From: Armatimonadota bacterium
Lineage (GTDB): Bacteria > Armatimonadota > SYMT01
Reading direction: 5' to 3'
DNA: 64,000 nucleotides
Assembly: GCA_046292385.1 (NCBI GenBank)
Contig: JBKBRF010000019.1
Span: 53,249 to 117,248, forward strand
Made by a program: the position numbers and the translations under genes
Notes under the pieces: model-generated
The model's input: only the letters and a program-made list of their open reading frames with translations
Database searches by the model: none
Told to the model about the DNA's origin: nothing
In this document: positions 21,148-42,125 of the stretch, one piece after another
Numbering within the stretch: the stretch's first letter is position 1
How the letters are laid out: each line of letters opens with the position of its first letter

Positions 21148-22320
21148 ATGAAGCAACGAAAGAAATCCGCGCTCGTCGTGGGCGCGCTGCTGCTTGTCAC
21201 ACTCCTCGTCGTATGGGCCTCCCGGGGTGCCTGGGAGCCGGCGGTCGCGCGGAGCCTCCCGGACGGAGCGCTTCACAGACTGGTCCAGGCGTGGCCGGGC
21301 TCCGGGGCCGTGCAGCTGGAGGTAGGGCGCCGCGCCTGGGACGCGGGCCGGCTCGGCGAGGCCGAGTGGGCCATGGCGGCCGCCGTCGAGCTGCTTCCCG
21401 CCGACCCGGCGGCCCGGGCGGAGTACACCCTGGTCCTTGCCGACCGGCAGGACATGCGGAACGCCGAGGCTGCTTACCGCGAGCTCGGCGCCCGTTTCCC
21501 CGGCAGTCCCCACGAGCGGATCGTGGAGGCGAGGTATCGTCTCGCCAGCGAGGGGCCCGGCTCCGCGGCCCCCCTGCTGCGGGAGCTGACTGAGCGCGCG
21601 CCGGAGCTGGCGGAGGCCTGGTATCTTCTGGGCTACTGCGCGGCCGAGCGCGGCGCGACGGAAGAGGCGCTCTCCGCGTTCCGCCGCGCGGTACGGCTCC
21701 GGCCCCGCTCGGGGCGGTACCACCGGGAGCTGGGGCAGGTGCTTCACCGGGTCGGCCAGCTCGATGCGGCGGAAGCGAGCATCCGCCGGGCACTCGAGCT
21801 CGCACCTTCGGACGACGCGACGGCGCTGGCGCTGGCGGAGCTGCTCCTCGATCGAGACCTCTCGGAGCAAAAGCTCACCGAGGCGGAGTCACTGCTGCAG
21901 TCCGCGCGTACGAGCGAGACCCTCCGCCTGGCGGCGTGTAAGGCGCTGGGACGAGTTGCCCTCGCCCGGAACGACTGGGACGCGGCGGAGCGGGCCTACG
22001 CCGAGGCGGCTCAGTCCAACGGGCAGGATCCGGACGCGCTCTACGGCCTCGCGCAGGCGCTGCGGGCGAAACGCGACCCACGCTACTCGGGCGTCCTGCA
22101 GCGGTTCCGGGTCGCCGAAACGACGCAGCGCGAGGAGCGATACCTTCGGGGCGCGCTCAAGGAGCGGCCGAACGACCCCGAAACCCGCGCGCGCCTCGCC
22201 CGCTTCTACCACCGGCTGGGACGTGTTGCCGAGGCGAGGGCCGTGCTCACCGGCTCGAGCTCCGAGACCCCGCGGGAGGCGCTCTCCGACGCCTTCAATC
22301 CCCAGGAGGCGCGCCGGTGA
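21148..22320 (+). CDS. Membrane-anchored TPR protein (module TPR-1)
   Basis: N-terminal basic + hydrophobic helix; repeated TPR consensus (AWYLLG...A...P); GTGA overlap with CRTAC1 gene. Confidence 0.85.
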   Translation: MKQRKKSALVVGALLLVTLLVVWASRGAWEPAVARSLPDGALHRLVQAWPGSGAVQLEVGRRAWDAGRLGEAEWAMAAAVELLPADPAARAEYTLVLADRQDMRNAEAAYRELGARFPGSPHERIVEARYRLASEGPGSAAPLLRELTERAPELAEAWYLLGYCAAERGATEEALSAFRRAVRLRPRSGRYHRELGQVLHRVGQLDAAEASIRRALELAPSDDATALALAELLLDRDLSEQKLTEAESLLQSARTSETLRLAACKALGRVALARNDWDAAERAYAEAAQSNGQDPDALYGLAQALRAKRDPRYSGVLQRFRVAETTQREERYLRGALKERPNDPETRARLARFYHRLGRVAEARAVLTGSSSETPREALSDAFNPQEARR

Positions 22321-23978
22321 AGCGGCGCTCCGCCATGCTCGCCGCGGCAGTCTTGCTGCTGGGTCTTGGGGTCGCTCTCTCCAGCGGCTGCGATTCTCCG
22401 GAGCGGGCCGCCGACGCCGCGACCCCGGAGCGAGCGTCGCCGTTCAACCTGCAGGAGGTCGCCGGGGAGCTCGGACTCTCGTTCCAGTCCGGGCACGGGG
22501 GGCGCTCGCCGCTCAGCACCCTGGAGACTCTCGGGCACGGGGCCGCCGTCGTCGACCTGAACGGCGACCACTACCCGGACGTCTGGCTCTTGAGCAGTCG
22601 CGGCTCCACCTACTACCGGAGCGTCGAGGGTCGCCGCTTTGAGGACGCGACGGCCGAGGCGCGGGCCAACCTTCCCGGCTACTGGCACGGCGTGACCGCC
22701 GGCGACTTCGACGGGGACGGGGATACCGACCTGTGCCAGGTCGGCTACGGCTGCCTCGCCCTGATCCGGAACGACGGAGGGGTGTTTCGCGACGCGACCG
22801 CGGCCTCCGGACTGATGCAGCCGGAGTGGGGCAGTAGCTGCGCCTTCGCGGACCTGGACGGCGACGGGCGCCTCGACCTCCTGGTGGGGGAGTATCTCGA
22901 CTTCGACGCCGGGCCGCGGCTCTGCACCGTGGGCGAGATCGAGACGGCCTGCGGTCCCAAGATCTATCCGGCGCTTTACCCTCGGGTCTACCGGAACCTC
23001 GGCGAGGGCCGCTTCGAAGACGTAACGAAGCGCTGGGGCTTCGACACCGCCTCCGGTAAGGCGCTCGGCATCGCCCTGGGCGACTACAACGGGGACGGCC
23101 GGCTGGACGTGGCATTCGCCAACGACGAGATGCCCCAGGACCTGTTCATCCGCAAGCCGGGGCCGGAGGTCCGCTTCCAGAACCAGGCCGTGGAGCTCGG
23201 TTTTGCCTACCTCGGGACGGGCCGGGTGCAGAGCGGGATGGGAATCGACGCCGCCGATTTCGATGGGGACGGCCGCGAAGACCTGCTCGTGACGAACTTT
23301 CAGAATGAGCCGGCCGGCCTCTACCGCAATGAAGGCGGCTACTTCACGGAGCACAGCGGGCAGGCCGGCGTTGCCGAGGCGACTTTTCCGTACGTCGGGT
23401 GGGGATGCCGCTTCTTCGACGCGGACGGCGACGGCGACCTCGACCTCGCGATGGCGAACGGCCACATCGAGGACAACGTGGCGCGGGTCCGGGCGAACAC
23501 CAGCTATGCCCAGCCTCTGCTGCTCTTCGAGAACCGGGAGGGGCGGTTCCGCCGCGTCACTCCAGCGGCGGGAGATCCGTGGGAGGAGCCGTTCGTCGGC
23601 CGCGGCCTGGTGGTGGCGGACATCGACAACGATGGCGCGCCGGACCTGCTCGCCACCAACCTGGAAGGCCCGATAAAGCTCCTCAAGAGCGCCTCCCCGG
23701 GCTACGACTGGATGGGGCTGGAGGTGCTCTCCAGGGGCGGCGCGGCACTCGGCGCCCGGGTGGTGGCCGAGTGGGACCGGGGGCAGACCACCCGGCGAGT
23801 CCCGGCCGGCGGCAGTATCTTCTCGGCCCAGGATCCGCGCCTGCAGCTCGCCATCCCCGAGGGCAAAACGCTGCAGCGGCTGCGGGTCGACTGGCCGGAC
23901 GGGACGCGGGAAGCGTTCACGCCCCCGCCGCTCGGCCGCTACTCCCGCCTGGTGCAGGGTACCGGCGCGCGGCTCTAG
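22317..23978 (+). CDS. CRTAC1-family (FG-GAP/VCBS propeller + ASPIC/UnbV) lipoprotein 1
   Basis: Lipobox LSSGC; many DxDGDGxxDL repeats; SGMGID; C-terminal GARV...SAQDPRL...VDWPDG. Confidence 0.9.
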   Translation: MKRRSAMLAAAVLLLGLGVALSSGCDSPERAADAATPERASPFNLQEVAGELGLSFQSGHGGRSPLSTLETLGHGAAVVDLNGDHYPDVWLLSSRGSTYYRSVEGRRFEDATAEARANLPGYWHGVTAGDFDGDGDTDLCQVGYGCLALIRNDGGVFRDATAASGLMQPEWGSSCAFADLDGDGRLDLLVGEYLDFDAGPRLCTVGEIETACGPKIYPALYPRVYRNLGEGRFEDVTKRWGFDTASGKALGIALGDYNGDGRLDVAFANDEMPQDLFIRKPGPEVRFQNQAVELGFAYLGTGRVQSGMGIDAADFDGDGREDLLVTNFQNEPAGLYRNEGGYFTEHSGQAGVAEATFPYVGWGCRFFDADGDGDLDLAMANGHIEDNVARVRANTSYAQPLLLFENREGRFRRVTPAAGDPWEEPFVGRGLVVADIDNDGAPDLLATNLEGPIKLLKSASPGYDWMGLEVLSRGGAALGARVVAEWDRGQTTRRVPAGGSIFSAQDPRLQLAIPEGKTLQRLRVDWPDGTREAFTPPPLGRYSRLVQGTGARL

Positions 23979-24112
23979 CCGGGGAGTCACGCGCCGTCGC
24001 CGCGTGCCGTCGCGGGGGGCGGCCCCGCGGCGACAGCTCCGGAGGGAAGGCTTCTGCGGTTGGAGAACTGCCGTTCAACGGAGTGATCGACGCAGTACAC
24101 TGGAGGGTTTCT

Positions 24113-24712
24113 ATGCGTCTACTCGTCATTGGCGGGATCGTGGTGGTGCTGCTGGCGGCCGGAGTCCGGGCGGTCACCTGGTATCAGAAGGACGGCCAGT
24201 ACAGCAGCCGCGCGGCGAGCGAATTGTCGTCTCAGCAGGCCGAGATCGAAGAGTGCAAGGGGCGACTCGCGACGCTGCATGCTGCCTGGGAAAGCTATCG
24301 GAAGGCGAACGGGGGCGCCAGCCCGCCGAGCGTGGAGTCGATGGTGCCAAAGCACCTGAAAGACCCGAAGCTCCTGTTCTGTCCCACCGCCGAGCGCTGG
24401 AAGGGCAAGGCGATCATGGCCCAGGGCAACATCAAGGTCGGGGACAAGGAGTACCCCGTCACCTACGCCTTCAAGTGGATGGTGCCCGGTTACGACCGTT
24501 TCCTGGGCAGCCGCGGTGAGAACTCCGTCCTGGTCGTCTGCGAGACTCACCGGGAAGGCGTCTACCGCGCCGCCTACCAGAAGCCGCCGCAGCTCGGCAC
24601 GTTCGATCCGTCCGGCCGCGGCTCCATGGCGGACTCGGTCAACAAGGCGCCGATCCTGGCCCTCCGGCGCAGCGGAGCCGTCGACGTCATCGGCGCCGAA
24701 GAGCTCGATTAG
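24113..24712 (+). CDS. Pilin-like membrane-anchored protein (DUF1559-like body, no prepilin cleavage motif)
   Basis: GGAGG RBS then ATG 24113; N-terminal TM; ECKGRLATLHAAWESY...P...LKDPKLLFCPT resembles the C..NL.QL..A..MY...F.CP core of the neighbouring pilins. Confidence 0.6.
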   Translation: MRLLVIGGIVVVLLAAGVRAVTWYQKDGQYSSRAASELSSQQAEIEECKGRLATLHAAWESYRKANGGASPPSVESMVPKHLKDPKLLFCPTAERWKGKAIMAQGNIKVGDKEYPVTYAFKWMVPGYDRFLGSRGENSVLVVCETHREGVYRAAYQKPPQLGTFDPSGRGSMADSVNKAPILALRRSGAVDVIGAEELD

Positions 24713-24798: not shown

Positions 24799-26439
24799 CT
24801 ACCGGCTCACTTCCAGGCTCCGGTTCAACTCGGTGACGTACTGGGTCCGGACGGTGCCGTCCGGCCAGCGGATGCGGAGCTGCACCGGTCCCTCGTGGTC
24901 CCCCAATCCGAAGTGGGCCGCCGTATCCAGACCGGAGAGCACGCTTCCGGAGGTCTTCACCTCTCGCGTCTGCTTTTGATCTCCTGCCTGCAGCTCGATC
25001 CGCGCGCCGAGGGCGAAGCGGTTCTCGCCGGGCATCCGGAGCCGCACGGAGAGCCACTGCCGGGCGGGCGATTGGTTCCGCAGCAGCAGCGCCTTCCCCT
25101 CCAGGTCGACCACCAGCAGGTCCAGGCGCCCGTCCCGGTCGTAGTCCGCGTAGCTCAGGCCGCGGCCGACGAGCGGAGAGCGTACCGCTTCGCCGGCCGA
25201 CGCGGTGCACTCCACGAACCGCCGTCCGTCGTTCCGGAATAGCTGCAGCGGCTGCCGGTAACTCTGCTGGGTGTCGAACTGCTCCACGCTGTCCCGGACG
25301 TGACCGTTGGCGATCACCACGTCGAGCCAGCCGTCGTTGTCCAGGTCGGCGAACGCGGTGCCAAATCCCACGTAGGGCATCGTGGCCGGGCCGATGCCGG
25401 TGGGGCCGCTGGTCACGGTGAACAGCCCGTTCCCGTCGTTGCGGTAGAGGCTCGTCTCCTGGGCGAAGAAGGTGGTGACGATCAGGTCCAGGCGCCCATC
25501 GTTGTCGTAGTCCCCGGTATCGACCCCCATCGCGCCCTGCATGTGCCCCTGGATGTCGTAGGCGGTTCCCGTGAGCGGCCCCACGTTCTTCCAGCGCTTC
25601 CCTTCCTGCGTCCAGAGATCGCAGGGCATCATGTCGTTGGCCAGGTAGATCGCCGGCTTCCCGCTCTCCAGCAGGTCCGAGACCACCACCCCCCAGGTCT
25701 TACCGGTGTCCCGCAGCTCTTCCGGCGGGAGCGCGCGGAAGCGGCCCCCGCCGGCGTTCAGGAGGAGCTTGCCCTGGAGCGGCTTGTAGAGCTCCGGTCC
25801 GCAGGCAAACTTCACGCCGCCGGCCTGGCAGATCTGCTGGGTGGTTTCGTCGAACTTCAGGTACTGCGGCACGTAGAGGTCGAGCCTGCCGTCACCGTTG
25901 ATATCCGCAAACGCGGCGCTCAGGGTCCAGTCGAGGCCGGTGATGCCGGCCTCGCGCGTCGCGTCGGCAAAGCGGCCGCCGCCCTGGTTCCGGTAGAGGG
26001 TGGAGCAGCGGTACCCGGTGAGGAACAGGTCCGGCCGGCCGTCGCCGTCGTAATCGCCGACGGCACAGCCCATCCAGTAGCGGTCGCTCCGGATGCCGCT
26101 CTTACGAGTCACGTCCTCAAACGTCCCGTCTCCGCGGTTCCGGTAGAGCGCGGCACGCTGCGGTCCGGCGAGGATCACGTCCGGCCAGCCGTCCTGGTCG
26201 AAGTCGAAGAACGCGCAGCCGCCGCCCGCGGTCTCCAGAATGGTGAGCGGCGAGCGCCCCTGGTGGCCGAGGCGGAAGTCGATCCCGGCCTCGTCGCCCG
26301 CGGAGACGAAGCGGATCGGCCCCGGCTCCGCAGCCTGCGTCTGGGCGCTGGCCGGGGTGGCCGGGATCACCCGCGCGGGCGAGTCGCAGCCGGCGAGCAG
26401 GGCCGCCGCGGCGCCCAGGAACAGGCCGCCCGCTCTCAT
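24799..26439 (-). CDS. CRTAC1-family (ASPIC/UnbV) lipoprotein 2
   Basis: ATG 26439 overlapping upstream TGA; lipobox LLAGC; FG-GAP repeats; GAMGVD; HFGLG...IRWPDG. Confidence 0.9.
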   Translation of the reverse strand: MRAGGLFLGAAAALLAGCDSPARVIPATPASAQTQAAEPGPIRFVSAGDEAGIDFRLGHQGRSPLTILETAGGGCAFFDFDQDGWPDVILAGPQRAALYRNRGDGTFEDVTRKSGIRSDRYWMGCAVGDYDGDGRPDLFLTGYRCSTLYRNQGGGRFADATREAGITGLDWTLSAAFADINGDGRLDLYVPQYLKFDETTQQICQAGGVKFACGPELYKPLQGKLLLNAGGGRFRALPPEELRDTGKTWGVVVSDLLESGKPAIYLANDMMPCDLWTQEGKRWKNVGPLTGTAYDIQGHMQGAMGVDTGDYDNDGRLDLIVTTFFAQETSLYRNDGNGLFTVTSGPTGIGPATMPYVGFGTAFADLDNDGWLDVVIANGHVRDSVEQFDTQQSYRQPLQLFRNDGRRFVECTASAGEAVRSPLVGRGLSYADYDRDGRLDLLVVDLEGKALLLRNQSPARQWLSVRLRMPGENRFALGARIELQAGDQKQTREVKTSGSVLSGLDTAAHFGLGDHEGPVQLRIRWPDGTVRTQYVTELNRSLEVSR

Positions 26440-27671
26440 GGCGACACCCCTTTCGGGCCGATCCGCTTCTCGAGCTGCTTCGCGCGGCGGCCGACCTCCC
26501 GGTCGTCCGGAGCAAGATCGACCGCATTGCGCGCGCTCGCCTGCGCGCCGCGGCGATCCCCCAGCTCCAGCTGGAGCTCCGCAAGCTCGAGATAGAGCTC
26601 CGCCTGTCCCGGCCGGTTGCCGAGATTGATCCGCAGCTCGTCGATCCGGCGCAGGAGGTCCTGGCGATGCCGATAGGTAGCGAGCAGCCGCTCCGCTTCC
26701 TCGCGGCGATCGAGGCGGAGCTGCACCTGGGCGAGGGCATAGTACGCCTCGTTCAAGTCCGGAGTGGTGCGCACCGCTTCCCGGAGGTGCTCGTCGGCGG
26801 CGTGCCACTGCTGGCGCTGTACGGCGACCTGACCATGCAGGAACGGCAGCAGCGGGTGCGTCGAGCTGAGCGCTTCCAGCCGCTCGACCGCCTGCTGCGC
26901 CAGCTCGGTATCGGATCCGCCCCGGCCGGTGGTCAGGAGCATCTTGGCCAGGTTCGCCTGGATCTGCACGTCGCCGGGCGCGCGGGTGGAGGCGAGCTGC
27001 AGGGCCTGGGTCGCCCCGGGGATGTTTCCGAGGGCGGCGTGAATGCTCGCCTGGATCGAGAGGTAGTTCGGGTCGTCCGGCACCTTCGCCAGCGCCTGGC
27101 TCACGGCGGCCTGTGCCCGGGCCACCTGCTGCAGCTGGAGGTAGCAGACTGCCTGCTCATAGAAGGCGTCGGAAAAGCCCGGGTCCCGCTCCGTCACGGC
27201 CCGGAACTGGTCGAGGGCATGGCCGTAGGAGCCCTGGCGTCGATAGAGGCGGCCGAGTGCCATGCGGGCCAGGGAGAATTCCGGGTGGTGATTCACCGCC
27301 GCCTTGAGCACCTGCTCGGCCTCCGGATACTCCTTCCGGGCCGTCAGGATCTCGCCGAGGCCGGTCGCCACCTCCGGGTCGCTCGGATCGAGCTCGAAGG
27401 CGTGCCGCAGCGCCGGCTCGGCCATGTCGCCGTCGCCGCTGCGAGCGAGGCGGAGTCCCAGTTGCCGCCAAGCCAGCCGATCGGTCCCGGCATCTTCCGC
27501 CAGGCGCTTCAGCGCCACCATGCCCATCCGGCTGTAGCGGAGCTCCGCGTTCCATGGACCGAACCACCAGACCAGGCCGGCTATCGCCACCGCCGCCAGC
27601 GCAAAGGCGAACGCCGGCGCCCGCCTCCGGCTGGCCGGCTGAACGGCCACTTCCACCGCAGTGTTCGACAT
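26436..27671 (-). CDS. Membrane-anchored TPR protein (TPR-2)
   Basis: N-terminal TM ending WWFGPW; multiple TPR repeats. Confidence 0.85.
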   Translation of the reverse strand: MSNTAVEVAVQPASRRRAPAFAFALAAVAIAGLVWWFGPWNAELRYSRMGMVALKRLAEDAGTDRLAWRQLGLRLARSGDGDMAEPALRHAFELDPSDPEVATGLGEILTARKEYPEAEQVLKAAVNHHPEFSLARMALGRLYRRQGSYGHALDQFRAVTERDPGFSDAFYEQAVCYLQLQQVARAQAAVSQALAKVPDDPNYLSIQASIHAALGNIPGATQALQLASTRAPGDVQIQANLAKMLLTTGRGGSDTELAQQAVERLEALSSTHPLLPFLHGQVAVQRQQWHAADEHLREAVRTTPDLNEAYYALAQVQLRLDRREEAERLLATYRHRQDLLRRIDELRINLGNRPGQAELYLELAELQLELGDRRGAQASARNAVDLAPDDREVGRRAKQLEKRIGPKGVSP

Positions 27672-28936
27672 CAGCTCTTCCCCGGTAATGCGTGAGGAGT
27701 AGATTGGATCTTATTCGCCAGTTGCTGCAGAGCTTGCTCCCGGCACTCGTTGAGTAACTTCGTGAACTGCGGATCGGCCGGCACGGTCTCCAGCGCGACC
27801 CAGCACTGCTCCGCCCCGTCGCCCGCCCGGCCGGACTTCTGCAGGGCCCGAACGAGGGCTGCCCGGACTTCCGTGTCGCCAGGATTCCCGGCGAGACGCT
27901 GCCGCAGGCGCTGAACCTCCGCGCTGTCGGGCACCCGGCTGTCTCGCGGTCTGCCGAGCCGCGACGCGACGTCGGCCAGGGTGGGGGACCGGTCCAGCAG
28001 CGCGAGCAGCTCTTCACAATCGGGATCCGCGCCGCGCTTTGCCTTCTCCCGCGCCAGCACCGACCGCGCCTCGTCGCGTCGGCCGGTAGCAATCAGGACT
28101 TCCGCCAGCGCGGCGGTAAACTGCGGCTTCGGAGCGGGGTCCCGCACCGCCTCCCGCGCCAGCTCCTCCGCCTCGGCCAGCGCCGCCGAGGTCCCGCGCC
28201 GCAGCATCAACCGCGCCAGCGGCGCGCGGACCATCCCGGTGGGGTACCCGCGCACGAGTCCGATCCGCCGACGCAGCTTCTTCTCCGCGTCCTCCTCGCG
28301 CCGGAGTCGCACTCCCAGCTCGGCAATCACCGGGTAGAGCGTGTCCTGCATCGGCTCGTGCTCGATCACCTGCATCGCCTTGTCCCAGGCCTCCTGATCT
28401 TTCCCCAGCGCAGCCAGGCATTCCGCCCAGGTTTCCAGGCTCACCATTGTGGGGGTCTTGTGCTGCGAGGCTTTCTCCAGCAGGGGAAGGGCATCCCGGT
28501 AAAGACCGGCGTCCGCGTAGACCTGCGCCAGGCTGTAAGCAGGGTCGGCGTCGTTCGGAGCCAGCTCGGCCGCCCGGCGGTAGGCATTCACCGCCCGGGC
28601 CACCTCGCCGGCGCCCGCCGCGGCCCGCGCGTAGCCGAGCCAGTAGAGCGAGGAGCGCGGCTCCTTCTTCACGAGCGATTCCATCCGCGCCGCCGCTTCC
28701 GGGTGCTCGCCCATCGTGACGAGCCGGAACGAAAGGCGATACGCGAGCTCGTGGTCGGCCGGATCGCGCTCGGACGCGGCGCGGAGCACCGGGATCGGCG
28801 CGGAGCTCAGCCACTCCTCGCGCTGGGCCAGGAACCACTGCCAGACACTCGCGACCAACGCCGCGGCTACGACCAGCGCAGCCAGCAGCCAGGATACCCG
28901 CCGCACGCGGCGATTCGAAGCAGCCGTCATCATCAC
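27671..28936 (-). CDS. Membrane-anchored TPR protein (TPR-3)
   Basis: RRVRR + TM; TPR repeats; overlaps both neighbours (start GTG 28936 or ATG 28933). Confidence 0.85.
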   Translation of the reverse strand: MMMTAASNRRVRRVSWLLAALVVAAALVASVWQWFLAQREEWLSSAPIPVLRAASERDPADHELAYRLSFRLVTMGEHPEAAARMESLVKKEPRSSLYWLGYARAAAGAGEVARAVNAYRRAAELAPNDADPAYSLAQVYADAGLYRDALPLLEKASQHKTPTMVSLETWAECLAALGKDQEAWDKAMQVIEHEPMQDTLYPVIAELGVRLRREEDAEKKLRRRIGLVRGYPTGMVRAPLARLMLRRGTSAALAEAEELAREAVRDPAPKPQFTAALAEVLIATGRRDEARSVLAREKAKRGADPDCEELLALLDRSPTLADVASRLGRPRDSRVPDSAEVQRLRQRLAGNPGDTEVRAALVRALQKSGRAGDGAEQCWVALETVPADPQFTKLLNECREQALQQLANKIQSTPHALPGKS

Positions 28937-32912: not shown

Positions 32913-32930
32913 ATGCCTTCCTTTCGTTAC

Positions 32931-33265: not shown

Positions 33266-33289
33266 TTTAGGGGCATTCCTGCCCCTAAA
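33266..33289. promoter_or_regulatory. Perfect inverted repeat in AT-richer divergent promoter region (candidate operator)
   Basis: TTTAGGGGCA-ttcc-TGCCCCTAAA. Confidence 0.45.
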
Positions 33290-33451
33290 AATGTAATGAA
33301 GACGGATGCTCCGGCGGCGGCGGCTCGCCGGCGTTGCCGGGGAGGCCGGAAGCGGGATAGAACTTAGCGGAGTGGCTTCCGCGCGTTTACCCGGCTGTTG
33401 GCGCGGGGCAGCCTTCCTCTGAACTATCCATTCCTTCTCGGAGGTCCACCT

Positions 33452-33655: not shown

Positions 33656-33682
33656 GGACCGCGCGCCAGTAGGGCGAGCGGT

Positions 33683-33731
33683 AACAAAGCAGCCCCGGAG
33701 GTCCACTGTGACCTCCGGGGCTGTTGTTTTG
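33683..33731. terminator. Bidirectional intrinsic terminator
   Basis: aacaaa-gcagccccggaggtc / gacctccggggctgt-tgttttgt between convergent genes. Confidence 0.85.
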
Positions 33732-33763
33732 TCCATTCGGGGAATCGTCCGGCGCCGGGAGCG

Positions 33764-34933
33764 CTACCAGACTTTGATCCAGTGGGTGCGGAACTTCAGC
33801 CCGAACGGCATGTTCACGTCCTGCTTGGGCATGTGGCAGGAGACGCAGTCTCGCGTCGGCTCGATCGGGCAAACGGCGTGCGCGTCCTGCGGCGCCGCCG
33901 GAGCGGAGCTGTGGCACGAGATGCACTTCCCGTCGTACTCCGCCAGGGTCAGCTTGGTGTCGCCGTGCGCGTTGTGGCAGGTCAGGCAGGAGAGCCTGCC
34001 CTCGCTGTTCGTGAAGCAGGGGCTCTGCGGCAGCGCCAGGCCCTGCAGCCGCGGGAGCTGCGCCTTGTTGAACGGCTCGTTCAGATCGTCGCCCGCCGGA
34101 GAGCGGTGGCACTGGCCGCAAAGCTCGGTGCTCAGCCGCTCCCGCATCTGACCGAGACGGGCCATCTTGATATCGCGAGAGCCGGTGTTGATCGCCTCCA
34201 CGTGGGCCTTTCCCGGGCCGTGGCACGACTCGCAGCCCAGCCCCAGGAACGCCTTCTCCGGCTGAATGCGCTGCCCTTCCTTGACCAGGGCGGTGGTGTG
34301 GCAGTTGAAGCACTCTTCCATCACGTCCGCGGTTTTCACCAGCCCCGAAGGGAAGAGCATGCCGCCGCTGACCTCCTCCACCTTCTGCCCCGGGCTAAAG
34401 TGCCACCGGCCCACCTCCGGGTAGAAACTAAGGCGCAGCTCCAGCAGGCGGTTCTGGAACTCGCCCATGTAGGTGACGCCGTGCTTGCCGGAGCCGAAGC
34501 CGTACTTCGCCGCGATGGTGTCGGTGCCTTCCCTGGTGGTGACGGTCTGGATGCACTGGCCGTCCTTCACTCCGGTGACGTAGTGCAGTTCCCGCTTCGG
34601 ATCGGTGACGTCGCTGGGCTTCTGGAACCGCTCTCCGTGCGTCTCCGCCGTCACCAGGGAAAGCGTCTCCGCGTGGTGACTGCCGTCGTGCGCCGCGAAC
34701 TGCTCCGAGTGGCAGGAAGCGCATGCCTCACTGCCGAGATACGACTTGCGCTCCTCCGGAGTGACCGGTCGAATCTTCGGGATCTCCTGCACGGAGGAAA
34801 CCTTCGGCCCCTCCGGAGCGCAGCTCTGGAGCGCGGGCAGCAGCAGGAGGAGGAAGATCCCCGACACCAGCGACCCGGTCCGCACGCTGCGGGGGAGCCT
34901 TCGGGCCAGAGATGAGAGCGGGTAGGATGACAT
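33764..34933 (-). CDS. Multiheme c-type cytochrome (c554-like), 7 CxxCH, putative lipoprotein
   Basis: CASCH, CFNCH, CESCH, CGQCH, CLTCH, CISCH, CVSCH; LQSC lipobox; CESCHGPG and CVSCHMPK...THWI motifs. Confidence 0.9.
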   Translation of the reverse strand: MSSYPLSSLARRLPRSVRTGSLVSGIFLLLLLPALQSCAPEGPKVSSVQEIPKIRPVTPEERKSYLGSEACASCHSEQFAAHDGSHHAETLSLVTAETHGERFQKPSDVTDPKRELHYVTGVKDGQCIQTVTTREGTDTIAAKYGFGSGKHGVTYMGEFQNRLLELRLSFYPEVGRWHFSPGQKVEEVSGGMLFPSGLVKTADVMEECFNCHTTALVKEGQRIQPEKAFLGLGCESCHGPGKAHVEAINTGSRDIKMARLGQMRERLSTELCGQCHRSPAGDDLNEPFNKAQLPRLQGLALPQSPCFTNSEGRLSCLTCHNAHGDTKLTLAEYDGKCISCHSSAPAAPQDAHAVCPIEPTRDCVSCHMPKQDVNMPFGLKFRTHWIKVW

Positions 34934-35107
34934 GTTGCGAAAGAGCGATCTGCCGCGCCGGTCTTGGGCCGAACGAGCAGAATGATTTGGCGAACGATCA
35001 GTGACCCATCTGCGTAGTTCTAGTGGAGTATACGGACCAACTCTCGCGCACGTACTCCGGGCGTCGCCAAAGTTCTACATTTCCCTGCCGGCCGGTCCGC
35101 CGTTGAG

Positions 35108-36742
35108 GTGCCAGTGTTGCGTGGGCCCGCATTCGCTTTCGTCTTCTCCCTCTCCACTCTGATCCTGGCCGGGTGCGTCGGCGAACAGTCCGGTCGAGCG
35201 AGTGCCAAGACGCCGGATGAGCCGTTCGTAGACGTTACCGCCGCCGCCGGCATCGACTACCAGTTGACTCCGGCCAAGCGTCCCATGCGGATCCTGGAAT
35301 CGGTCGGGTCCGGCTGTGGCTTCGTCGACCTCAATGGCGACGGAAAGCTGGACGTGCTGCTGGTGGGGCAGCCCCGGTGCGCGGTCTACCGGAACGACGG
35401 CGGCGGCCGGTTCACCGACATCACCGCCGAGACCGGCCTGGGGGTCGAAGGCCCCTGGATCACCGCGGCCGTGGCGGATTACGACCGGGACGGGGACATC
35501 GACGTCCTGCTGGCGGGGTATCGCCGCTCGGCCCTGTTCCGCAACGACGGCGGCCGGTTTACAGACGTGACCGCCGAGGCCGGAGTTCAGGTGGGCCGCT
35601 GGTGCAATACCGCCGCCTTCGCGGACTTCGACCGGGACGGCTATCCGGACCTCTACATCGGCACCTACGTGAAGTTCGGCCCGGAATCGAAGCAGTACTG
35701 CCGGCTTCACGCGGGGGGCGCCCATACCTCGTGCCGGCCGGTCGACTACGACGGCGACGTCGGCGCCTGCTTCCGGAACCGGGGCGACGGCACCTTCGAG
35801 GACGTGACGCAAAAGTGGGGGCTGGACAAGGTCCACGGAAAGAATCTCGGGATTGCGGTCGCCGACTACGATGATGACGGCTGGCCGGATCTCTTCCTGG
35901 CGAACGACGAGATGGCGCAGGAGCTCTACCGGAATCAGGAGGGTAAGGGCTTTGTCAACGTCGCGATCGAGACCGGGTCCGCCTACCGGGGAGACGGCGG
36001 GATGATGGGCGGGATGGGCGTGGACTGGGGCGACTACGACAACGACGGCGCCCTGGACCTGCTGGTCGGCACCTACGAAGCCGAGCCGAAGGCGCTCTTC
36101 CGCAACCTGGGCGGATCGGGATTCGAGTGGGCGACCGCCCGCTCGCAGATCGAGGCGGCGTCGAACGTCTCCGTGGTGTGGGGGACGCTCTTGTTCGACT
36201 ACGACAACGACGGCCTCCTCGACATCGCGTTCGCCAATGGCCATGTCTTCGACAACGTGGAAGCAGTGAATCCGCAGTCGTCTTACCGGCAGCCGACCCA
36301 GCTCTTCCGGAACCAGGGCGACGGCAGCTTCTCCTTTATCGAGAGTCCCACGCTGGCGGTCCCGATGGCCGCGCGCGGTCTGGCGTGCGGGGACTACGAC
36401 GGGGATGGAGACCTCGACCTCCTGATCTCGGACATCGACGGCAAGGCGCGACTCCTGGAGAACCGGGCTGGAAACGGAAAGCACTGGCTGCTGGTCCAGA
36501 CCCGCGGGACCAAGAGCAACCGGGACGGCCTGGGCGCACGCGTGACGCTCCACCTGAAGGGTGGAAAGCGCGTCGGCGAGGTGCGGACCGCTCGCAGCTA
36601 CGCCACCGTCTGTGACGGGCGAGTGCACTTCGGGCTGGGCGACGTTACAGAGATCGAGCGCGTAGAGGTACGGTGGCCTTCCGGCGCGGTCAGCCGGGTT
36701 GACAACGTCCGGGCGAATCAGGTGTTGGTGGTGGAAGAATGA
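35108..36742 (+). CDS. CRTAC1-family (ASPIC/UnbV) lipoprotein 4
   Basis: ILAGC lipobox; FG-GAP repeats; GGMGVD; SNRDGLGARV, HFGLG, VRWPSG. Confidence 0.9.
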   Translation: MPVLRGPAFAFVFSLSTLILAGCVGEQSGRASAKTPDEPFVDVTAAAGIDYQLTPAKRPMRILESVGSGCGFVDLNGDGKLDVLLVGQPRCAVYRNDGGGRFTDITAETGLGVEGPWITAAVADYDRDGDIDVLLAGYRRSALFRNDGGRFTDVTAEAGVQVGRWCNTAAFADFDRDGYPDLYIGTYVKFGPESKQYCRLHAGGAHTSCRPVDYDGDVGACFRNRGDGTFEDVTQKWGLDKVHGKNLGIAVADYDDDGWPDLFLANDEMAQELYRNQEGKGFVNVAIETGSAYRGDGGMMGGMGVDWGDYDNDGALDLLVGTYEAEPKALFRNLGGSGFEWATARSQIEAASNVSVVWGTLLFDYDNDGLLDIAFANGHVFDNVEAVNPQSSYRQPTQLFRNQGDGSFSFIESPTLAVPMAARGLACGDYDGDGDLDLLISDIDGKARLLENRAGNGKHWLLVQTRGTKSNRDGLGARVTLHLKGGKRVGEVRTARSYATVCDGRVHFGLGDVTEIERVEVRWPSGAVSRVDNVRANQVLVVEE

Positions 36743-37953
36743 AGCGGCGAACTTCCCTCTATGCCGGGCTCGCCTGCCTGGCGCTCGTGCTCGCGGGGGT
36801 CGGGGCGTATGCCTGGCAGCTCCCGTCCGTGCAGATGGCGCTGCTGGAGCGCGCGTCGCTCGAACAACTGGAGCGAAGGGTCGAGGCGGAGCCGGACGAC
36901 TGGCGCGTCCAGTACTGGTTCGGCAAGCGAGCCGCGGAATCCGGCGATTTCCTCCGGGCGGAGCCGGCGCTCCGCCGGGTCCTCGGCACCGAGTGGGGCT
37001 TCACCCCCGCCGCGACCGAGCTGGGACGAGTGCTGCTGGCGAAGGGCGAGGTGAACGAGGCGTTCCAGCTCCTCCGCATGGCGGTGGGCCGCGAGGGGCA
37101 GCCGGACGCGCGCCTGGCGCTGGGGCAGCTCTACCGTTCCCAGGGCGCCCATCACCTCGCCATGGAGCAGCTCAAAGAGGCGCTGAAGGCCCGCCCGAAC
37201 GATGCGCAAGCGCTTTACGAGCTCGCGGCGGCGCACGCGCAGGTCCAGCAGTACGAGCAGGCGGAGGAGAACCTCCGGCGCGCGCTGAGCCTCGCCCCGA
37301 AGTCGCCGCTCTTCCTCACCGCGCTGAGCCGCATCCGCCGGGAGCGCGGCGACCTGGCCGAAGCCGAGTCTCTCGCGCGGGAAGCCGTCGCCCTGCAGCC
37401 GGACGCTCCCGACGCGCTGATGGAGCTCAGCCGCGCCCTGGCGATGAAGCTGCCGGCGGAAAAGCACCGGCCGGAGGCGATCGCTACCCTGGAGTCCGCC
37501 CTGACCCTGGCGCCGCGCCACCCCGGCCTGAGGCTCGAGCTCGCGAAGCTGCATGGGGAAGCGGAGAACTGGCCGGCTTCCGTGACGTTACTGGAGCAGG
37601 CGATCCAGCTCACCCCGGGCGAAACCCAGGCGTATTATCTGCTCTCGCGCGCGTACCGGGCCCTGGGCCGGACCGAAGACAGCCAGCGGATGGACGGCGT
37701 TTTCAAGCGCCGGCAGGCTTATGACCGGAAGGTCCAGGCCCTGGGAGCGAAGATCGGCGCCAATCCGGAGAACGCGAAGCTGCGGTTCGAGCTCGGCGAG
37801 CTGCACGCCAGCGAAGGAGAGCTGGACCAGGCGGCCCAGTCGTACCGGAACGGGCTCCAGTGGGATCCGAAGAACGAGACCGCCCGCCGCCGAATGGTAG
37901 AGCTGGTTCGCCAGGCAACCCAGCGGAGAGCCGACCGTGGCACGCCTCGCTAG
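36739..37953 (+). CDS. Membrane-anchored TPR protein (TPR-5)
   Basis: MKRR + TM; TPR repeats; overlaps both flanking CRTAC1 genes. Confidence 0.88.
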   Translation: MKRRTSLYAGLACLALVLAGVGAYAWQLPSVQMALLERASLEQLERRVEAEPDDWRVQYWFGKRAAESGDFLRAEPALRRVLGTEWGFTPAATELGRVLLAKGEVNEAFQLLRMAVGREGQPDARLALGQLYRSQGAHHLAMEQLKEALKARPNDAQALYELAAAHAQVQQYEQAEENLRRALSLAPKSPLFLTALSRIRRERGDLAEAESLAREAVALQPDAPDALMELSRALAMKLPAEKHRPEAIATLESALTLAPRHPGLRLELAKLHGEAENWPASVTLLEQAIQLTPGETQAYYLLSRAYRALGRTEDSQRMDGVFKRRQAYDRKVQALGAKIGANPENAKLRFELGELHASEGELDQAAQSYRNGLQWDPKNETARRRMVELVRQATQRRADRGTPR

Positions 37954-39607
37954 CTTCGGCCTCCGGATCGGCCTCGGCGCCCTCCTCGCGAGCGTCACGG
38001 CCGCCGGCTGCGTCGCGTCGGCCGCCCGCACTCCACGCCTGGGAGCCGGAGAGACCCAGCCCGCTGCGGTGGCGACCTTCCGGGACGTCGCCGCCGAGGC
38101 CGGGCTCGACTTCCGGCTGGGCCACGAAGGCCGCACGCCGCTCTCCATCCTGGAGACCGCCCCGGGCGGCGGTGCCTTCCTCGACTGGGACCAGGACGGC
38201 CGGCTCGACATCGTGCTGGCGGGAGAGTCAAAGTGCGCGCTCTACCGGAACAGCGGAGACGGCCGGTTTACGGACGTCACCCGCGCCGCCGGGCTGCCCA
38301 CCACCGGTCACTGGATGGGAGTGGCGGTGGGGGACTACGACGGCGACACCTACCCGGACCTCCTCCTCACCGGCTACCGCACCCTGGCGCTCCTGCGGAA
38401 TGTCCGGGGAACGCGGTTCCAGGACGTAACGGCGCACGCCGGCCTCAACACCTCCCTCTGGACCACGAGCGCCGCCTTCTTCGACTACGACCGCGACGGC
38501 GATCTCGATCTCTACGTCGGCGCCTACCTCGCCTACCACCGGGGAAAGGACGACCTCTGCCAGGTCGGCCCGATTACCGCCGCCTGCGGTCCGGAGCACT
38601 ACGAGGCGGAGAAGGGGCTGCTCTACCGCAACGAGGGCGGAGGCCGGTTCCGAGACGTGACCCAGGCTTTCGGACTGGCAGCGGCCACCGGAAAGACCTG
38701 GGGCGTGGCGGTCTGCGACTATGACCGGGATGGCTGGCCGGACCTCTATCTCGCCAACGACATGGTGCCGTGCGATCTCTTCCGCAACGAGAAGGGCCGG
38801 TTCCGGAATATTGGCGTGGAATCCGGCACCGCCCTCGATGGGAGCGGCAACGTGCTCGGCGGGATGGGGGCGGACTGGGGAGATGCCGACGGCGACGGGC
38901 GGCCCGACCTCTTCCTGGGAACCTACTTTCAGCAGCCGAACTGCCTGTTCAAGAACCAGGGAGACCACCTCTTCCGCGAAGTGAGCGACCAGGTGGGGCT
39001 GGGGCTGCCGACCCGAGCCTACGTCGCGTTCGGCTGCGGATTCCTGGATCTCGATCTCGACGGCGACCTGGATCTGTTCGTGACCAACGGTCACGTTCGG
39101 GACTCGATCTCCGGATTCGATCCGTCCCAGACCTACCCGCAGCCGATGCAGCTCCTGGAGAACCTGGGCACCGGCCAGTTCCGAGACGCGACCCGGGGAG
39201 CCGGAGAGCCGTTCAAGACGGGACTGGTGGGACGCGGCTGCGCCTTCGGCGACTACGACGGCGACGGCGACGAGGACATTCTGGTGGTCGACCTGGAAGG
39301 CCCGGTCCGTCTGCTGCAGAACCAGACCCCCGTGGAATCGAAGAACTGGCTGACGGTGCGCCTCCGCGGAAAAGGCGGCAACCGCGAGGCGATCGGGGCA
39401 CGAGTGGAGGTGTACCTGAAGGGCCGCACGCTCCACCGCGAGGTGCAGCGCTCCCGCGGCGTGCTCTCCTCCAGCGCGCCTGCTCTCCACTTCGGCCTGG
39501 GGGAGAGCCAGGAGGTCGAGCGGGTGCGCGCCCACTGGCCGGACGGCACGCGATCCGAGGTGATCCGGCCGCCGATTCGCGAGGTCTTGTCCCTGGTGCA
39601 GCGGTAG
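37937..39607 (+). CDS. CRTAC1-family (ASPIC/UnbV) lipoprotein 5
   Basis: TAAGC lipobox; FG-GAP repeats; GGMGAD; NREAIGARV, LHFGLG, HWPDG. Confidence 0.9.
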   Translation: MARLASFGLRIGLGALLASVTAAGCVASAARTPRLGAGETQPAAVATFRDVAAEAGLDFRLGHEGRTPLSILETAPGGGAFLDWDQDGRLDIVLAGESKCALYRNSGDGRFTDVTRAAGLPTTGHWMGVAVGDYDGDTYPDLLLTGYRTLALLRNVRGTRFQDVTAHAGLNTSLWTTSAAFFDYDRDGDLDLYVGAYLAYHRGKDDLCQVGPITAACGPEHYEAEKGLLYRNEGGGRFRDVTQAFGLAAATGKTWGVAVCDYDRDGWPDLYLANDMVPCDLFRNEKGRFRNIGVESGTALDGSGNVLGGMGADWGDADGDGRPDLFLGTYFQQPNCLFKNQGDHLFREVSDQVGLGLPTRAYVAFGCGFLDLDLDGDLDLFVTNGHVRDSISGFDPSQTYPQPMQLLENLGTGQFRDATRGAGEPFKTGLVGRGCAFGDYDGDGDEDILVVDLEGPVRLLQNQTPVESKNWLTVRLRGKGGNREAIGARVEVYLKGRTLHREVQRSRGVLSSSAPALHFGLGESQEVERVRAHWPDGTRSEVIRPPIREVLSLVQR

Positions 39608-39918
39608 GCCTTCGCGTAAGCCGGCAACGGCGCTCCGGCGCTAGTCACGCCTGAAAGCTTCGCAAGCAGCAATTCAGCCCCCACTCGAGATCGGCACGGC
39701 AATCCCTTCATTTGAAATATCAAGATCTATCTCCACATGTGCGCAACGCTTTTGCAACTCGGCTTTTCTAACAGCCGAAGGAAAGGTGAAGGATTTTTCA
39801 GGAGGCGCGGGGAATAGGTCGATCAAGAACTCTCTGGTTCGCGTCCGCGGTGAGGGTTCCGTCATCATCAGTATCCTGGGCGCTCCATCGACGGAGTGTG
39901 CCCGAAGGGAGTACCTGA

Positions 39919-40743
39919 ATGCTCGTAACAAAGAAGACGAAGCGCTTTGTCGGCTTCACCCTGATCGAACTGCTGGTAGTCATTGCCATCATCGCTATCC
40001 TGGCCGCGATCCTGTTCCCGGTGTTCGCACAGGCCCGTGAAGCCGCCCGTAAGGCGAGCTGCCAGAGCAACCTGAAGCAGCTCGGCACGGCGATGCAGAT
40101 GTATCGCGCAGACTACGACGGTCTGTTCCCGTTCGGTGGCTGGTACGGCAACAACGGCGGCAACGCCAACGTGGACCGCAGCAACGACTGGCACCTGTCG
40201 ACCTACCCGTACATCAAGAACACGGGCGTCTACCTCTGCCCCAGCAGCACCGACATCCACCAGCTGCCGAACGGCCCGGCGGACTGGAACCGCACCAGCA
40301 CCGACTACATCTACAACAACCACCTGGGCCCGAACCGCTCTCCCCTCAATGAGGCGGCGGTGAACGCCCCGGCGGACTGTGTGATGCTGGTGGAAGGCCA
40401 CAGCGACTGGGGCCGCGGCCCGTGCATCACGCCGTTCACCAACGGCCAGTTCGTGACGAACTCGTTCTGCCACGAGTACACCATCTTCGGCGACAACGGC
40501 TCCCTCGTGACCGGCGGCCTGTGGGCCACCGACCGCAAGCTCTGGGGTCTGCCTCGCCACAGCGGCGGTGGTAACGTGGCGTTCGTGGACGGTCACGTGA
40601 AGTTCTTCAACAACTGGGATGCCGTCGGCGCGCTGCAGAGCCGGCAGAAGCTCGAGGGAACGATTCCTTACCGGAAGCACATCGAGCCGAGCCAGAGCCG
40701 GATCAACGATCCGAACGTGGTCTGGCGCTCCGAAGGGCTCTAA
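39919..40743 (+). CDS. Prepilin-type N-terminal cleavage/methylation protein with DUF1559-like body and H-X9-DG motif (pilin 2)
   Basis: [60 protein letters not shown]. Confidence 0.93.
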
Positions 40744-40762
40744 GTCCGGCCGGATTACGTAG

Positions 40763-40805
40763 TATGGGGAGGGACGCGAATGCGTCCCTCCCCATTTTCT
40801 TTTTG
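40763..40805 (+). terminator. Rho-independent terminator after pilin 2
   Basis: atggggagggacgc-gaat-gcgtccctccccat followed by tttcttttt. Confidence 0.9.
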
Positions 40806-40823
40806 TCCGGTGAGTAGATCGCT

Positions 40824-42125
40824 ATGGCTGATTCTATTGAGACCGTCTCCGAAGCTGCAGTCAACGAGGCTCGCCGCCCGCCGCGGGGCCGCATCTGGCT
40901 CCTCCTCATCCTCGGCGTGGCGATCATCTGCGGCGCCCTCGTCTTCCGATCGAGCGCGTGGGCCAAGGAATACCCGCTGAAGCGCGCTTCGCTCGAAGTG
41001 CTGCGCTCCTGGGCAGAGCGGTCCCCACGCGATCCGCTGGTTCAGTACTACCTGGGCGTCAAGAGCTACGACAATGGCCTCTATCCGGAGGCCGTGCTGG
41101 CATTCCGCGCCGCGACCACGCAGGATCCGAAGATGACGCGGGCTTTCCTGGGATTGGCCGGCGCGCACCGCGTCCTGGGTCAGAACCCGGAGGCGTATGC
41201 GGCTGCCAAGCAAGCGGCGCTGCTGGAGCCCAAGAACGTCCCGGCGCAGTTTCTGATCGCGTCCCTGGTGGCCGAGGTCTCACTGCAGGATGCCCGGCCG
41301 GAGTACCAGAAGCTGACGCGTCTGGCGCCGGAGCGTGCGGATGCCTGGTACGGCCTCGGGATGTGCGAAGCGGGCCTGATCCAGCGCGGTGATGCGGTGG
41401 CGCCGCTCACGAAGGCGGTGGAGCTGGATCCGAAGAATGCCCTCTATCGCCGGGATCTCGGCCAGATCCTGATGCGGCTCAGCCGCTTCGAAGAGGCCCG
41501 GCCGCACCTGGAGGAAGCGGTTCGGCTCGGGCCTGAAGACGCGTCGAGCTGGTACTACGCCGGCAAGACCCTCGGGACCCTGGCGAAGACCGATGCGGAG
41601 CTGACCACAGCGGACGAGCATCTCCAGCGGGCGATCCAGCTCCTGGAGGCGGCCGAGGAGCGCAGCCCCGTGGGCGAAGCGGAGATCAAGTCGGTGCGTG
41701 CCGAGCTGATGCGCCGCCTGAATCGACTGGCTGACGCGGAGAAGCTGCTCCGCGAGGCGCGGCTGCAGGATCCCAAGACGGTCAACTACCTCCGCCAGTT
41801 GGCGGACGTGGTCCGGGCGCGGGGCAATCAGCAGCTCGCGGTGGAGCTGATGCGAGAGTACGCGGCGAAGCACGAGCTCGAAGAAGCGGTGGAGCAGATG
41901 AAGCAGCGCCTGAAGCAGGACCCGAACAACCCCGGGCAGCGGCTGCGCTTCGCGCGGCTCCTGGTGCAGGCCGGCGACATCCCCCAGGCGTACACGCAGT
42001 ACACTATCGTCCACAAGCTGAAGCCGCAGCAGCCGGCGGAGGTGCGCGCGGAGTTCAAGAAGGTAGAGGAAGACTTCAAGGCGCTTCAGAAGGTCTCCGT
42101 CGTCGCCCCGGCCGCCGCGAAGTAG
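40824..42125 (+). CDS. Membrane-anchored TPR protein (TPR-6)
   Basis: TM then SAWAKE...SPRDPL; TPR repeats; closest to TPR-4. Confidence 0.88.
   Translation: MADSIETVSEAAVNEARRPPRGRIWLLLILGVAIICGALVFRSSAWAKEYPLKRASLEVLRSWAERSPRDPLVQYYLGVKSYDNGLYPEAVLAFRAATTQDPKMTRAFLGLAGAHRVLGQNPEAYAAAKQAALLEPKNVPAQFLIASLVAEVSLQDARPEYQKLTRLAPERADAWYGLGMCEAGLIQRGDAVAPLTKAVELDPKNALYRRDLGQILMRLSRFEEARPHLEEAVRLGPEDASSWYYAGKTLGTLAKTDAELTTADEHLQRAIQLLEAAEERSPVGEAEIKSVRAELMRRLNRLADAEKLLREARLQDPKTVNYLRQLADVVRARGNQQLAVELMREYAAKHELEEAVEQMKQRLKQDPNNPGQRLRFARLLVQAGDIPQAYTQYTIVHKLKPQQPAEVRAEFKKVEEDFKALQKVSVVAPAAAK

Follow-up and report, generated by a model that had tools for sequence, protein, structure and literature searches.

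Do the 17 genes between positions 21148 and 42125 of this Armatimonadota DNA (contig JBKBRF010000019.1 of assembly GCA_046292385.1) encode one surface apparatus, or several units placed side by side, and what might these do? The interval is part of the window, by which we mean the whole stretch of 64,000 nt that was analyzed, and lies between two genes that we take, from their sequences, to be clpC (18476-20959) and radA (42179-43594). An initial annotation had described it as a single 21-kb envelope system. Its inventory holds: five CRTAC1-type propellers (CR1-CR5), six anchored tetratricopeptide repeat (TPR) proteins (TPR1-TPR6), two prepilins (PIL1 and PIL2), one pilin-like protein (PILX), two lipoproteins (LP1 and LP2) and one cytochrome (CYT), each gene with coding-type codon bias or a signal peptide. 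As that annotation also had it, no match to an enzyme, transporter or regulator family appeared in the open reading frames (ORFs) scanned (sets of 16 and 9), and Rfam returned zero family matches across 20500-42500. The single apparatus itself did not hold up: the genes make up three or more stacked units and are distributed over five strand runs. Judged by gene order, the interval is a stack of cassettes of three to seven genes, and the 21-kb scale is explained by the stacking. The recurrent form reads as H-X9-DG pilin > anchored TPR > CRTAC1 propeller, with or without extra TPR and CRTAC1 genes, a tiny lipoprotein and a heptahaem cytochrome. We give an even chance to the reading that these are substrate-specific envelope cassettes which together form a pilus-fed capture and processing module.

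The gene order is TPR1-CR1-PILX (+), CR2-TPR2-TPR3-CR3-TPR4-PIL1-LP1 (-), LP2 (+), CYT (-) and CR4-TPR5-CR5-PIL2-TPR6 (+). Genes lying in five strand runs (+ - + - +) cannot be one operon, which rules out a single operon for all 17. The best conserved unit, block B, is encoded on the minus strand and reads PIL1 > TPR4 > CR3 > TPR3 > TPR2 > CR2. It is headed by PIL1 (32085-32912; H-X9-DG/DUF1559 prepilin of 275 aa with the signal G|FTLIE), followed by the pilin-adjacent TPR4 (30640-31911; 423 aa), CR3 (28933-30630; CRTAC1-type, 565 aa, signal peptide and no lipobox), TPR3 (27671-28936; 421 aa), TPR2 (26436-27671; 411 aa, translationally coupled to CR2) and CR2 (24799-26439; CRTAC1-type lipoprotein of 546 aa from the ATG at 26439, lipobox LAGC). 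The same six genes in the same order were found in four genomes of another family. In locus L045 of that family the identities are 64% for PIL1, 44% for TPR4, 57% for CR3, 26% for TPR3, 42% for TPR2 and 58% for CR2; the block was also found in L213 without a cytochrome, and in L211 and L212 with the cytochrome inserted. A search with the PIL1 head, which covered 301 genomes and scored only 9 candidates per genome, matched six other genomes with PIL1 orthologues 61-70% identical. Two of these (G027, G298) carry the six block-B genes alone and two (G198, G246) a heptahaem cytochrome between TPR3 and TPR2; in G230 the contig ends after TPR4, and G236 has PIL1 > TPR4 > TPR plus two divergent CRTAC1 genes.

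PILX (24113-24712, plus strand; uncleaved pilin-like protein, 199 aa) can be placed with block B because of where its orthologues sit: in L212 (42% identity) two genes beyond that of CR2, in L216, a short G004 contig (32%), beside the CR2 and CYT orthologues, and in L044 (38%) after a CRTAC1 gene. Among the genomes found with the PIL1 head, it is G246 that has a PILX orthologue two genes past CR2. According to this comparison, eight of the 17 genes are an ancient unit, of which CYT (33764-34933, minus strand) is a real and optional member. The earlier claim that the cytochrome belongs to the system thus stands for the blocks of L211 and L212, and does not extend to the whole blocks of L045 and L213, from which it is absent.

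The second unit, block C, lies on the plus strand and reads CR4 > TPR5 > CR5 > PIL2 > TPR6. It consists of CR4 (35108-36742; CRTAC1-type lipoprotein, 544 aa), TPR5 (36739-37953; 404 aa, coupled to CR5), CR5 (37937-39607; CRTAC1-type lipoprotein, 556 aa), PIL2 (39919-40743; H-X9-DG/DUF1559 prepilin, 274 aa, 51% identical to PIL1) and the pilin-adjacent TPR6 (40824-42125; 433 aa). It recurs in one genome of the same family (L105; 57, 39, 57, 60 and 38% identity in this order). Block C appears to have arisen by duplication and rearrangement of block B, because PIL1/PIL2, TPR4/TPR6, TPR2/TPR5 and CR2/CR5 are mutual closest paralogues. A third pair, unit A on the plus strand, is TPR1 > CR1, in which the N-terminally anchored TPR1 (21148-22320; 390 aa) overlaps by 4 nt the start of CR1 (22317-23978; 553 aa, CRTAC1-type propeller with UnbV domain); no close orthologue of CR1 was present among the fetched loci (best 39-40% identity). 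Throughout, the junctions between TPR and CRTAC1 genes are tight or overlapping (-17 to +9 nt), and each pilin is followed by a gap of 80-173 nt before the downstream TPR gene. The GC content of the interval is unremarkable (64-71%) and its paralogues are only 22-51% identical overall (CRTAC1 38-51%, TPR 22-33%), so that nothing indicates recent duplication or import and the paralogues appear to be old. At L037 (G005:C6) the clpC-like and radA-like genes enclose a different set of pilin, TPR and CRTAC1 paralogues, which suggests that the clpC-radA interval is a shared landing site for cassettes in this family.

The linkage of the three families extends beyond these blocks. This genome contains 15 UnbV_ASPIC (CRTAC1) genes at 8 loci and 39 H-X9-DG pilins, and the cassette is repeated at six loci, which have a TPR gene and, no more than 3 kb from the CRTAC1 gene, a pilin. 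Of the remaining two loci, one has a pentahaem-TPR gene with a distinct CRTAC1 gene after it, and the other an UnbV-like gene beside a membrane protein. When 45 pilin-like ORFs were placed at random 20,000 times, at most five of the 8 loci were reached (once), and the observed six never. UnbV matches were found in 17 of the 31 genomes searched and GFxxxE pilins in all 31 (13-132 GFxxxE genes per genome). For the relatives, 80 loci were picked by hand from 150 listed of 185 UnbV matches, with longer contigs favoured; one (L050) has no full CRTAC1 and was left out, leaving 79 loci from 16 relatives. A pilin lay within 3 kb in 44 of these 79, compared with 7.0 expected from the GFxxxE density, a six-fold enrichment whose locus counts overstate independence, the genomes being kin. 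An adjacent TPR gene was seen in 61/79, and the strict co-directional order pilin > TPR > CRTAC1 in 24/79, spread over nine genomes and four families. With orthologous gene order and enriched linkage, the cassette is a coherent, conserved envelope module of these families, as had been supposed; that the clustering might be expected by chance, the refutation envisaged at the outset, fails against the conserved linkage across genomes and the permutation. Two copies are possibly decayed or truncated: in L050 (G027:C1 near 2673000) the UnbV match lies in a 177-aa frame, and in L046:8856-10496 a TAG codon stands inside the match.

The cassette partners also appear to be inherited together. In 25 triplets, nearest neighbours agreed between TPR and CRTAC1 in 17 cases, between pilin and CRTAC1 in 13 and between pilin and TPR in 12, where chance would give about one, and the Mantel correlation of TPR with CRTAC1 was 0.43. 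Pilin heads are 55-76% identical inside orthologous cassettes and mostly 25-34% otherwise, as would be expected of specificity modules. The pilin-linked CRTAC1 proteins are not one clade; a FastTree phylogeny of 120 rows required 21 state changes.

Which kind of gene may take the place of the pilin where it is missing was seen in a sample across phyla, namely the best 79 of at least 600 loci obtained with a single CR5 query and therefore biased toward CR5-like sequences. A pilin accompanied CRTAC1 in Armatimonadota (3/3 loci), Planctomycetota (10/17) and Verrucomicrobiota (1/4), and in none of the loci of Acidobacteriota (0/37), Pseudomonadota (0/8), Latescibacterota (0/6) or others (0/4). Among the 49 untagged ORFs of at least 750 aa from these loci, TonB-type receptors were detected in 11 of the 37 Acidobacteriota loci (nine by barrel family, two only by an N-terminal CarboxypepD_reg domain), and none among the large ORFs of the other phyla, including the 17 Planctomycetota loci. 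Four loci (L121, L138, L152 and L182) read receptor > TPR > CRTAC1, with the receptor in the slot held by the pilin here. This genome, which is 98% complete, has no match to the TonB-receptor families PF00593, PF25183 and PF07715. PepSY-TM genes usually accompany TonB receptors; in this genome all three directly adjoin an H-X9-DG pilin (L190:2173-3357, L191:3824-5008, L198:5503-6771). A PepSY-TM gene of G005 is likewise directly beside such a pilin (L041:15830-17245). While no degrading enzyme or regulator stands beside the cassettes of the interval, three others have a LacI gene directly upstream of pilin > TPR > CRTAC1 (L043 and L059, in relatives) or a solute-binding protein downstream (L065), and other pilins of this genome lie near FeoB, ABC importer, MFS transporter and GH39/GH32 genes. 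In four of the 79 cross-phylum loci (L112, L172, L176, L189) TPR and CRTAC1 are fused in full length, and in three of these the fusion gene precedes a pilin by one or two genes.

All five propellers score above the Pfam cut-offs for FG-GAP_3 (PF13517) and UnbV_ASPIC (PF07593) and carry six or seven Dx[DN]xDG motifs each, the calcium-blade propeller with C-terminal UnbV_ASPIC domain that defines the CRTAC1/ASPIC-UnbV family. The CR5 model (predicted local distance difference test, pLDDT, 95.7) is a seven-bladed propeller with a C-terminal beta-sandwich. Its best structural match is mouse CRTAC1 (9ETN; Z 43.6, root-mean-square deviation 2.1 A over 450 residues; Foldseek E 3.9e-31), followed by LGI1, aldos-2-ulose dehydratase (Z about 30) and fungal GlcNAc lectins. 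The two-domain fold and the calcium-blade motifs are shared with the mouse protein, but identity is only 20-24%, the bacterial lipoproteins have a Cys-hairpin insertion and an NGH loop that mouse CRTAC1 does not share in the hidden Markov model alignment, and the bacterial proteins come with cassette partners. In the CR5 model, on strand order and secondary structure and not on coordinates, the DxDxDG loops would lie on one face of the propeller and a ring of conserved residues (E49, Y173, K/R229, N250, D251, M286, E309, N360, H362 and R409, plus the C184-C193 hairpin) on the opposite face. Across 78 pilin-linked propellers Y173, N250, D251, M286, N360, H362 and R409 are conserved to 94-100% and the cysteines to 89-91%; in each of the groups not linked to pilins Y173, D251, M286 and R409 reach at least 88%, while H362 and the cysteines vary. 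The ring looks like a lidded ligand-binding or catalytic pocket, and no cofactor motif was found in the propeller.

The UnbV domain is also known from enediyne cassettes, which consist of pksE, TE, UnbL, UnbU and UnbV, UnbV (E4) standing with UnbU (E5). Apart from this shared UnbV_ASPIC domain the interval differs, with no polyketide synthase, thioesterase, UnbU-like or UnbL-like gene among the 17, and is not an enediyne cassette. Elsewhere in the genome, at G000:C23:65674-68303 (partly L004), an UnbV-like CRTAC1 gene is followed by a membrane protein gene, which we take to resemble UnbU/RnfD, downstream of ABC-importer genes. This copy is in a separate clade, whose members often follow TPR genes of 1,100-1,200 aa, and is without several of the pocket residues. 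In family f7 (L042-L047, L057-L061) many CRTAC1 lipoproteins start with twin-arginine-like signals (SRRE, TRRE, SRRK), unlike most in the window. ASPIC/UnbV is already listed as a paralogue family in the accessible part of an earlier report (PMC3174227).

PIL1 and PIL2 are GFTLIE prepilins that pass TIGR02532, TIGR04294 (H-X9-DG) and PF07596. They share with type IV filament subunits (PilA, GspG and the Geobacter PilA-N structures 9egp/7tgg) the class III signal G|FTLIE with E5 and the long N-terminal helix, but differ in that their paralogues number in the dozens, each accompanied by cargo genes of its own, and in that the locus encodes no machinery. Neither a GspG-K nor a PilA identity can be assigned, as scores are below the equivalog cut-offs (GspG 41.8 vs 88.85 bits; PilA 41.9 vs 400) and only the N-terminal helix matches. 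The PIL2 model is partly confident (pLDDT 66.4), and its head gave no Foldseek match to solved structures at E<=0.001. PILX lacks both GFxxxE and any NCBIfam match and falls outside the H-X9-DG/DUF1559 motif definitions, its likeness to DUF1559 pilins being one of fold only (Atlas model, TM 0.59). The filament machinery is encoded elsewhere in the genome: one prepilin peptidase, 15 T2SSE-family matches including seven PilT, and six secretins. In excerpts of earlier papers, Planctopirus is credited with 68 DUF1559 paralogues of unassigned function (PMC10632474), DUF1559 is termed solute-binding (PMC2754498), pili-like fibres of planctomycetes bind dextran (PMC5394234), their route of polymer uptake is stated to be unknown (PMC6474216) and Armatimonadota have a diderm envelope (PMC11535203).

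A strong hairpin, putatively a terminator or attenuator, lies just after the PIL1 stop (approximately 32030-32065, minus strand; z -4.2 vs shuffles), and a terminator-like hairpin with a T-run between PIL2 and TPR6 (40764-40795, plus strand). Such hairpins follow the pilin in 24 of 29 cassettes and the TPR gene in 3 of 29, compared with 21 of 120 co-directional control genes and 11 of 31 further pilins of the genome (heuristic gene calls, 15 mononucleotide shuffles apiece). No sigma-70-like promoter was found in 31800-40900. Three RNA-library runs from two studies, in which 5-9% of the words occur, were compared at 85% likeness. In run X1 a single contig of 1,158 nt bridges LP1 and PIL1 (32059-33195, 21 differences) and PIL2 is covered in all three runs; among the matches listed the pieces of other genes are short. 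These contigs come from relatives, show neither level nor strand and may include DNA carry-over.

From these observations we infer a filament, all its contacts, a direction of transport, a substrate and a chemistry, in six steps. The prepilin would be cut at G|F by the prepilin peptidase of the genome and built into a type IV filament by the machinery encoded elsewhere. Since a terminator-like hairpin follows its gene, the pilin would be made in excess of its downstream cassette partners. Its variable head would bind a specific substrate outside the cell, and PilT-driven retraction through a secretin would bring this substrate into the periplasm, a role like that of the TonB receptors of Acidobacteriota, posited because pilin and receptor occupy the same gene position. 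The anchored TPR protein may hold the CRTAC1 propeller near the filament base, as the coupling, co-inheritance and fusions of the two suggest. The propeller would then receive the substrate, or act on it chemically, in its conserved top-face pocket, and where a heptahaem cytochrome is present, it may move electrons to or from this step. Our leading guess for the substrate is a glycan or another polymer-derived organic molecule. More generally, and only tentatively, Armatimonadota and Planctomycetota may import large solutes with retractable filaments of interchangeable, substrate-specific H-X9-DG pilins instead of TonB receptors, so that a cassette would be a receptor plus a periplasmic processing station and CRTAC1 its enzyme or binding subunit, with a chemistry that is possibly haem-coupled.

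Several observations weigh against this proposal. A pilin is absent from 35 of the 79 relatives' loci, including all five of G009 and all three of G007, and 14 of 31 genomes have many pilins yet no UnbV match, so that neither depends on the other. Between the pilin head and TPR the Mantel correlation is non-significant (rho 0.08, p 0.19), and between pilin and CRTAC1 it is weak (0.20). Acidobacteriota carry many TonB receptors, and the 11 of 37 loci with such a receptor may therefore be only a modest enrichment; G027 has four TonB receptors besides its pilins. Neighbours of 20 sampled pilin loci of this genome that lack CRTAC1 are mostly unrelated to uptake, the interval itself contains no transporter, glycosidase or regulator, and the closest solved folds of the propeller are non-enzymes or lectins.

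A rather unlikely alternative, which develops the idea of exported CRTAC1 adhesins in the initial annotation, is an apparatus for export or adhesion, with the pilin as a cargo-specific pseudopilin or minor pilin, the TPR protein as a chaperone and CRTAC1 as a secreted or pilus-tip adhesin or lectin resembling PilY1. Type II secretion handles folded proteins, and the Tat-like motif in 37 of 104 CRTAC1 N-termini (a loose pattern) would fit such cargo. The six secretins of the genome and the GlcNAc lectins that come next after CRTAC1 in Foldseek agree with this, and calcium-blade propellers include PilY1 and fungal lectins, according to the accessible sections of one paper (PMC3123361). However, the same TPR-CRTAC1 pair stands without a pilin behind TonB-type receptors, which are importers, in Acidobacteriota, the hairpin behind the pilin gene speaks for an abundant subunit and not a minor adaptor, and the TPR proteins are membrane-anchored and in some genomes fused to CRTAC1. 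Export is less favoured because the pilin stands where Acidobacteriota have a TonB-dependent receptor, so that the comparative context points rather to import.

The cytochrome raises a further alternative, an extracytoplasmic redox module. This would be a haem-linked oxidoreductase with CRTAC1 as its catalytic or substrate-binding subunit, to which the pilin would bring substrate or electrons in a secondary role. CYT is exported, has 389 aa and exactly seven CxxCH motifs, and gives C554 and paired-CXXCH matches. It belongs to none of the named multihaem families tried (cytochrome c554/CycA, DmsE/MtrA decahaem, OmcA/MtrC), whose NCBIfam scores were all below cut-off (e.g., CycA 32 vs 400, DmsE 42 vs 192), and its solved relatives are partial only (best 6i5b, E 4.9e-13 over 73 residues). 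CYT-type cytochromes occur in 10 of 31 genomes. In favour of a redox function, the cytochrome lies inside block B in two of four full orthologous blocks, three of the five heptahaem genes of this genome sit in CRTAC1 loci, multihaem proteins are found within 3 kb at 15 of the 79 relatives' loci and haem proteins at 7 of 8 Pseudomonadota loci, and the CYT domain is fused to TPR in Acidobacteriota clusters. A redoxin gene (AhpC-TSA match, L106:1559-2269) lies in a cytochrome-rich CRTAC1 cluster; a similar, unmatched gene is seen at L035:4594-5292. In the excerpts of a study of hydrazine-synthase homologues, CRTAC1 genes flank these and lie among haem c protein genes, as here, although the haem proteins differ and the excerpts mention no pilin or TPR (PMC12758564). 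On the other hand, the entire block exists without a cytochrome in L045 and L213, the CYT query found no match in the single-contig G027, which has all six block-B genes, 64 of the 79 loci lack any haem protein within 3 kb, and the propeller shows no cofactor motif. As a reading in its own right the redox module is unlikely; it is compatible with pilus-fed capture, of which it would be the sixth step. At L215:1334-4213, L220:8343-10658 and L221:3186-7506 a heptahaem cytochrome and an H-X9-DG pilin are neighbours, in L215 and L221 together with a tiny lipoprotein, and the fetched stretch contains no CRTAC1; a direct link between cytochrome and pilin is possible there.

Clearly improbable is a module for envelope sensing or cell-contact recognition, in which the pilin and the propeller would recognize a ligand, with the TPR protein passing on the signal. 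The top structural matches, CRTAC1 and LGI1, are protein-interaction propellers, and about 2.3 kb beyond the cluster, past radA, lies a pair of genes (44383-45536) that we take to be extracytoplasmic function (ECF)-sigma-like and zinc-finger anti-sigma-like, with no evidence of a link to the cassettes. The TPR proteins, however, have only short N-terminal segments before their anchor, and no signalling gene recurred in the locus maps inspected, whose neighbours were not scanned exhaustively. An accumulation of abundant families by chance, without joint function, at a site prone to insertion finds room in the 15 CRTAC1 and 39 pilin genes and in the exchanged cassettes of L037, where stacking may be a landing-site effect, but for the cassette it is refuted by orthologous gene order across families, the permutation and the six-fold enrichment, so that, very improbable as a whole, it is possible only for the adjacency of the three units.

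Pilus-fed capture can be set beside the systems known to be led by a receptor, the TonB-receptor and SusC-SusD utilization loci. Common to both are many paralogous, substrate-specific cassettes per genome and a receptor gene that comes first, followed by a TPR-type partner and exported lipoproteins, with LacI-type regulators at some copies. They differ in that no beta-barrel receptor is present in the interval or detectable in the genome, a type IV pilin being found instead, in that each of the six TPR proteins is anchored by a single uncleaved N-terminal hydrophobic helix and is not a lipoprotein like SusD, and in the lack of a glycosidase in the interval. With no TonB-dependent beta-barrel receptor, the interval is not a TonB/SusCD locus. 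The parts (CRTAC1, H-X9-DG prepilin and TPR families) are known and the whole, by analogy, works most like such a locus; the feature is real and conserved, and we propose to regard it as a variant of the receptor-led uptake loci that is based on a type IV pilin. In the literature searched, with few subscription papers and no supplements, neither a pilin-TPR-CRTAC1 cassette nor a function for bacterial CRTAC1 proteins was described, and the module is apparently undescribed there. Few paralogue families of these phyla are larger than the DUF1559/H-X9-DG pilins, which have no assigned function. The gene-for-gene conservation provides cognate sets of pilin, TPR protein, propeller and cytochrome, pocket residues that can be mutated, and a comparison with and without cytochrome, and the swap of receptor and pilin between phyla makes the replacement of TonB receptors by pilins directly testable. 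If import by pilus were true, it would add a new class to the outer-membrane uptake systems and give the CRTAC1 fold its first biochemical function.

The remaining genes of the interval encode two tiny Gly/Pro-rich lipoproteins, for which no homologues were detectable in this genome or the fetched loci. LP1 (32931-33152, minus strand; lipobox VSGC) lies 18 nt upstream of PIL1, and LP2 (33452-33655, plus strand; lipobox LVGC) likely starts at a GTG at 33452 after GGAGG, its longest ORF beginning at 33398. Between the convergent LP2 and CYT genes is a bidirectional terminator-like hairpin (33688-33725). A tandem of four H-X9-DG pilin genes with no CRTAC1 nearby was found at G000:C13:5624-10298. 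In the window outside the interval, three genes at 14511-17249 resemble what we take to be kdsB, kdsA and kdsD (Kdo synthesis), which would fit an outer membrane, and four paralogous ORFs of about 280-340 aa with similar beta-rich N-termini lie at 3487-7382 beside genes that are presumably sulfotransferase-like and glycosyltransferase-like.

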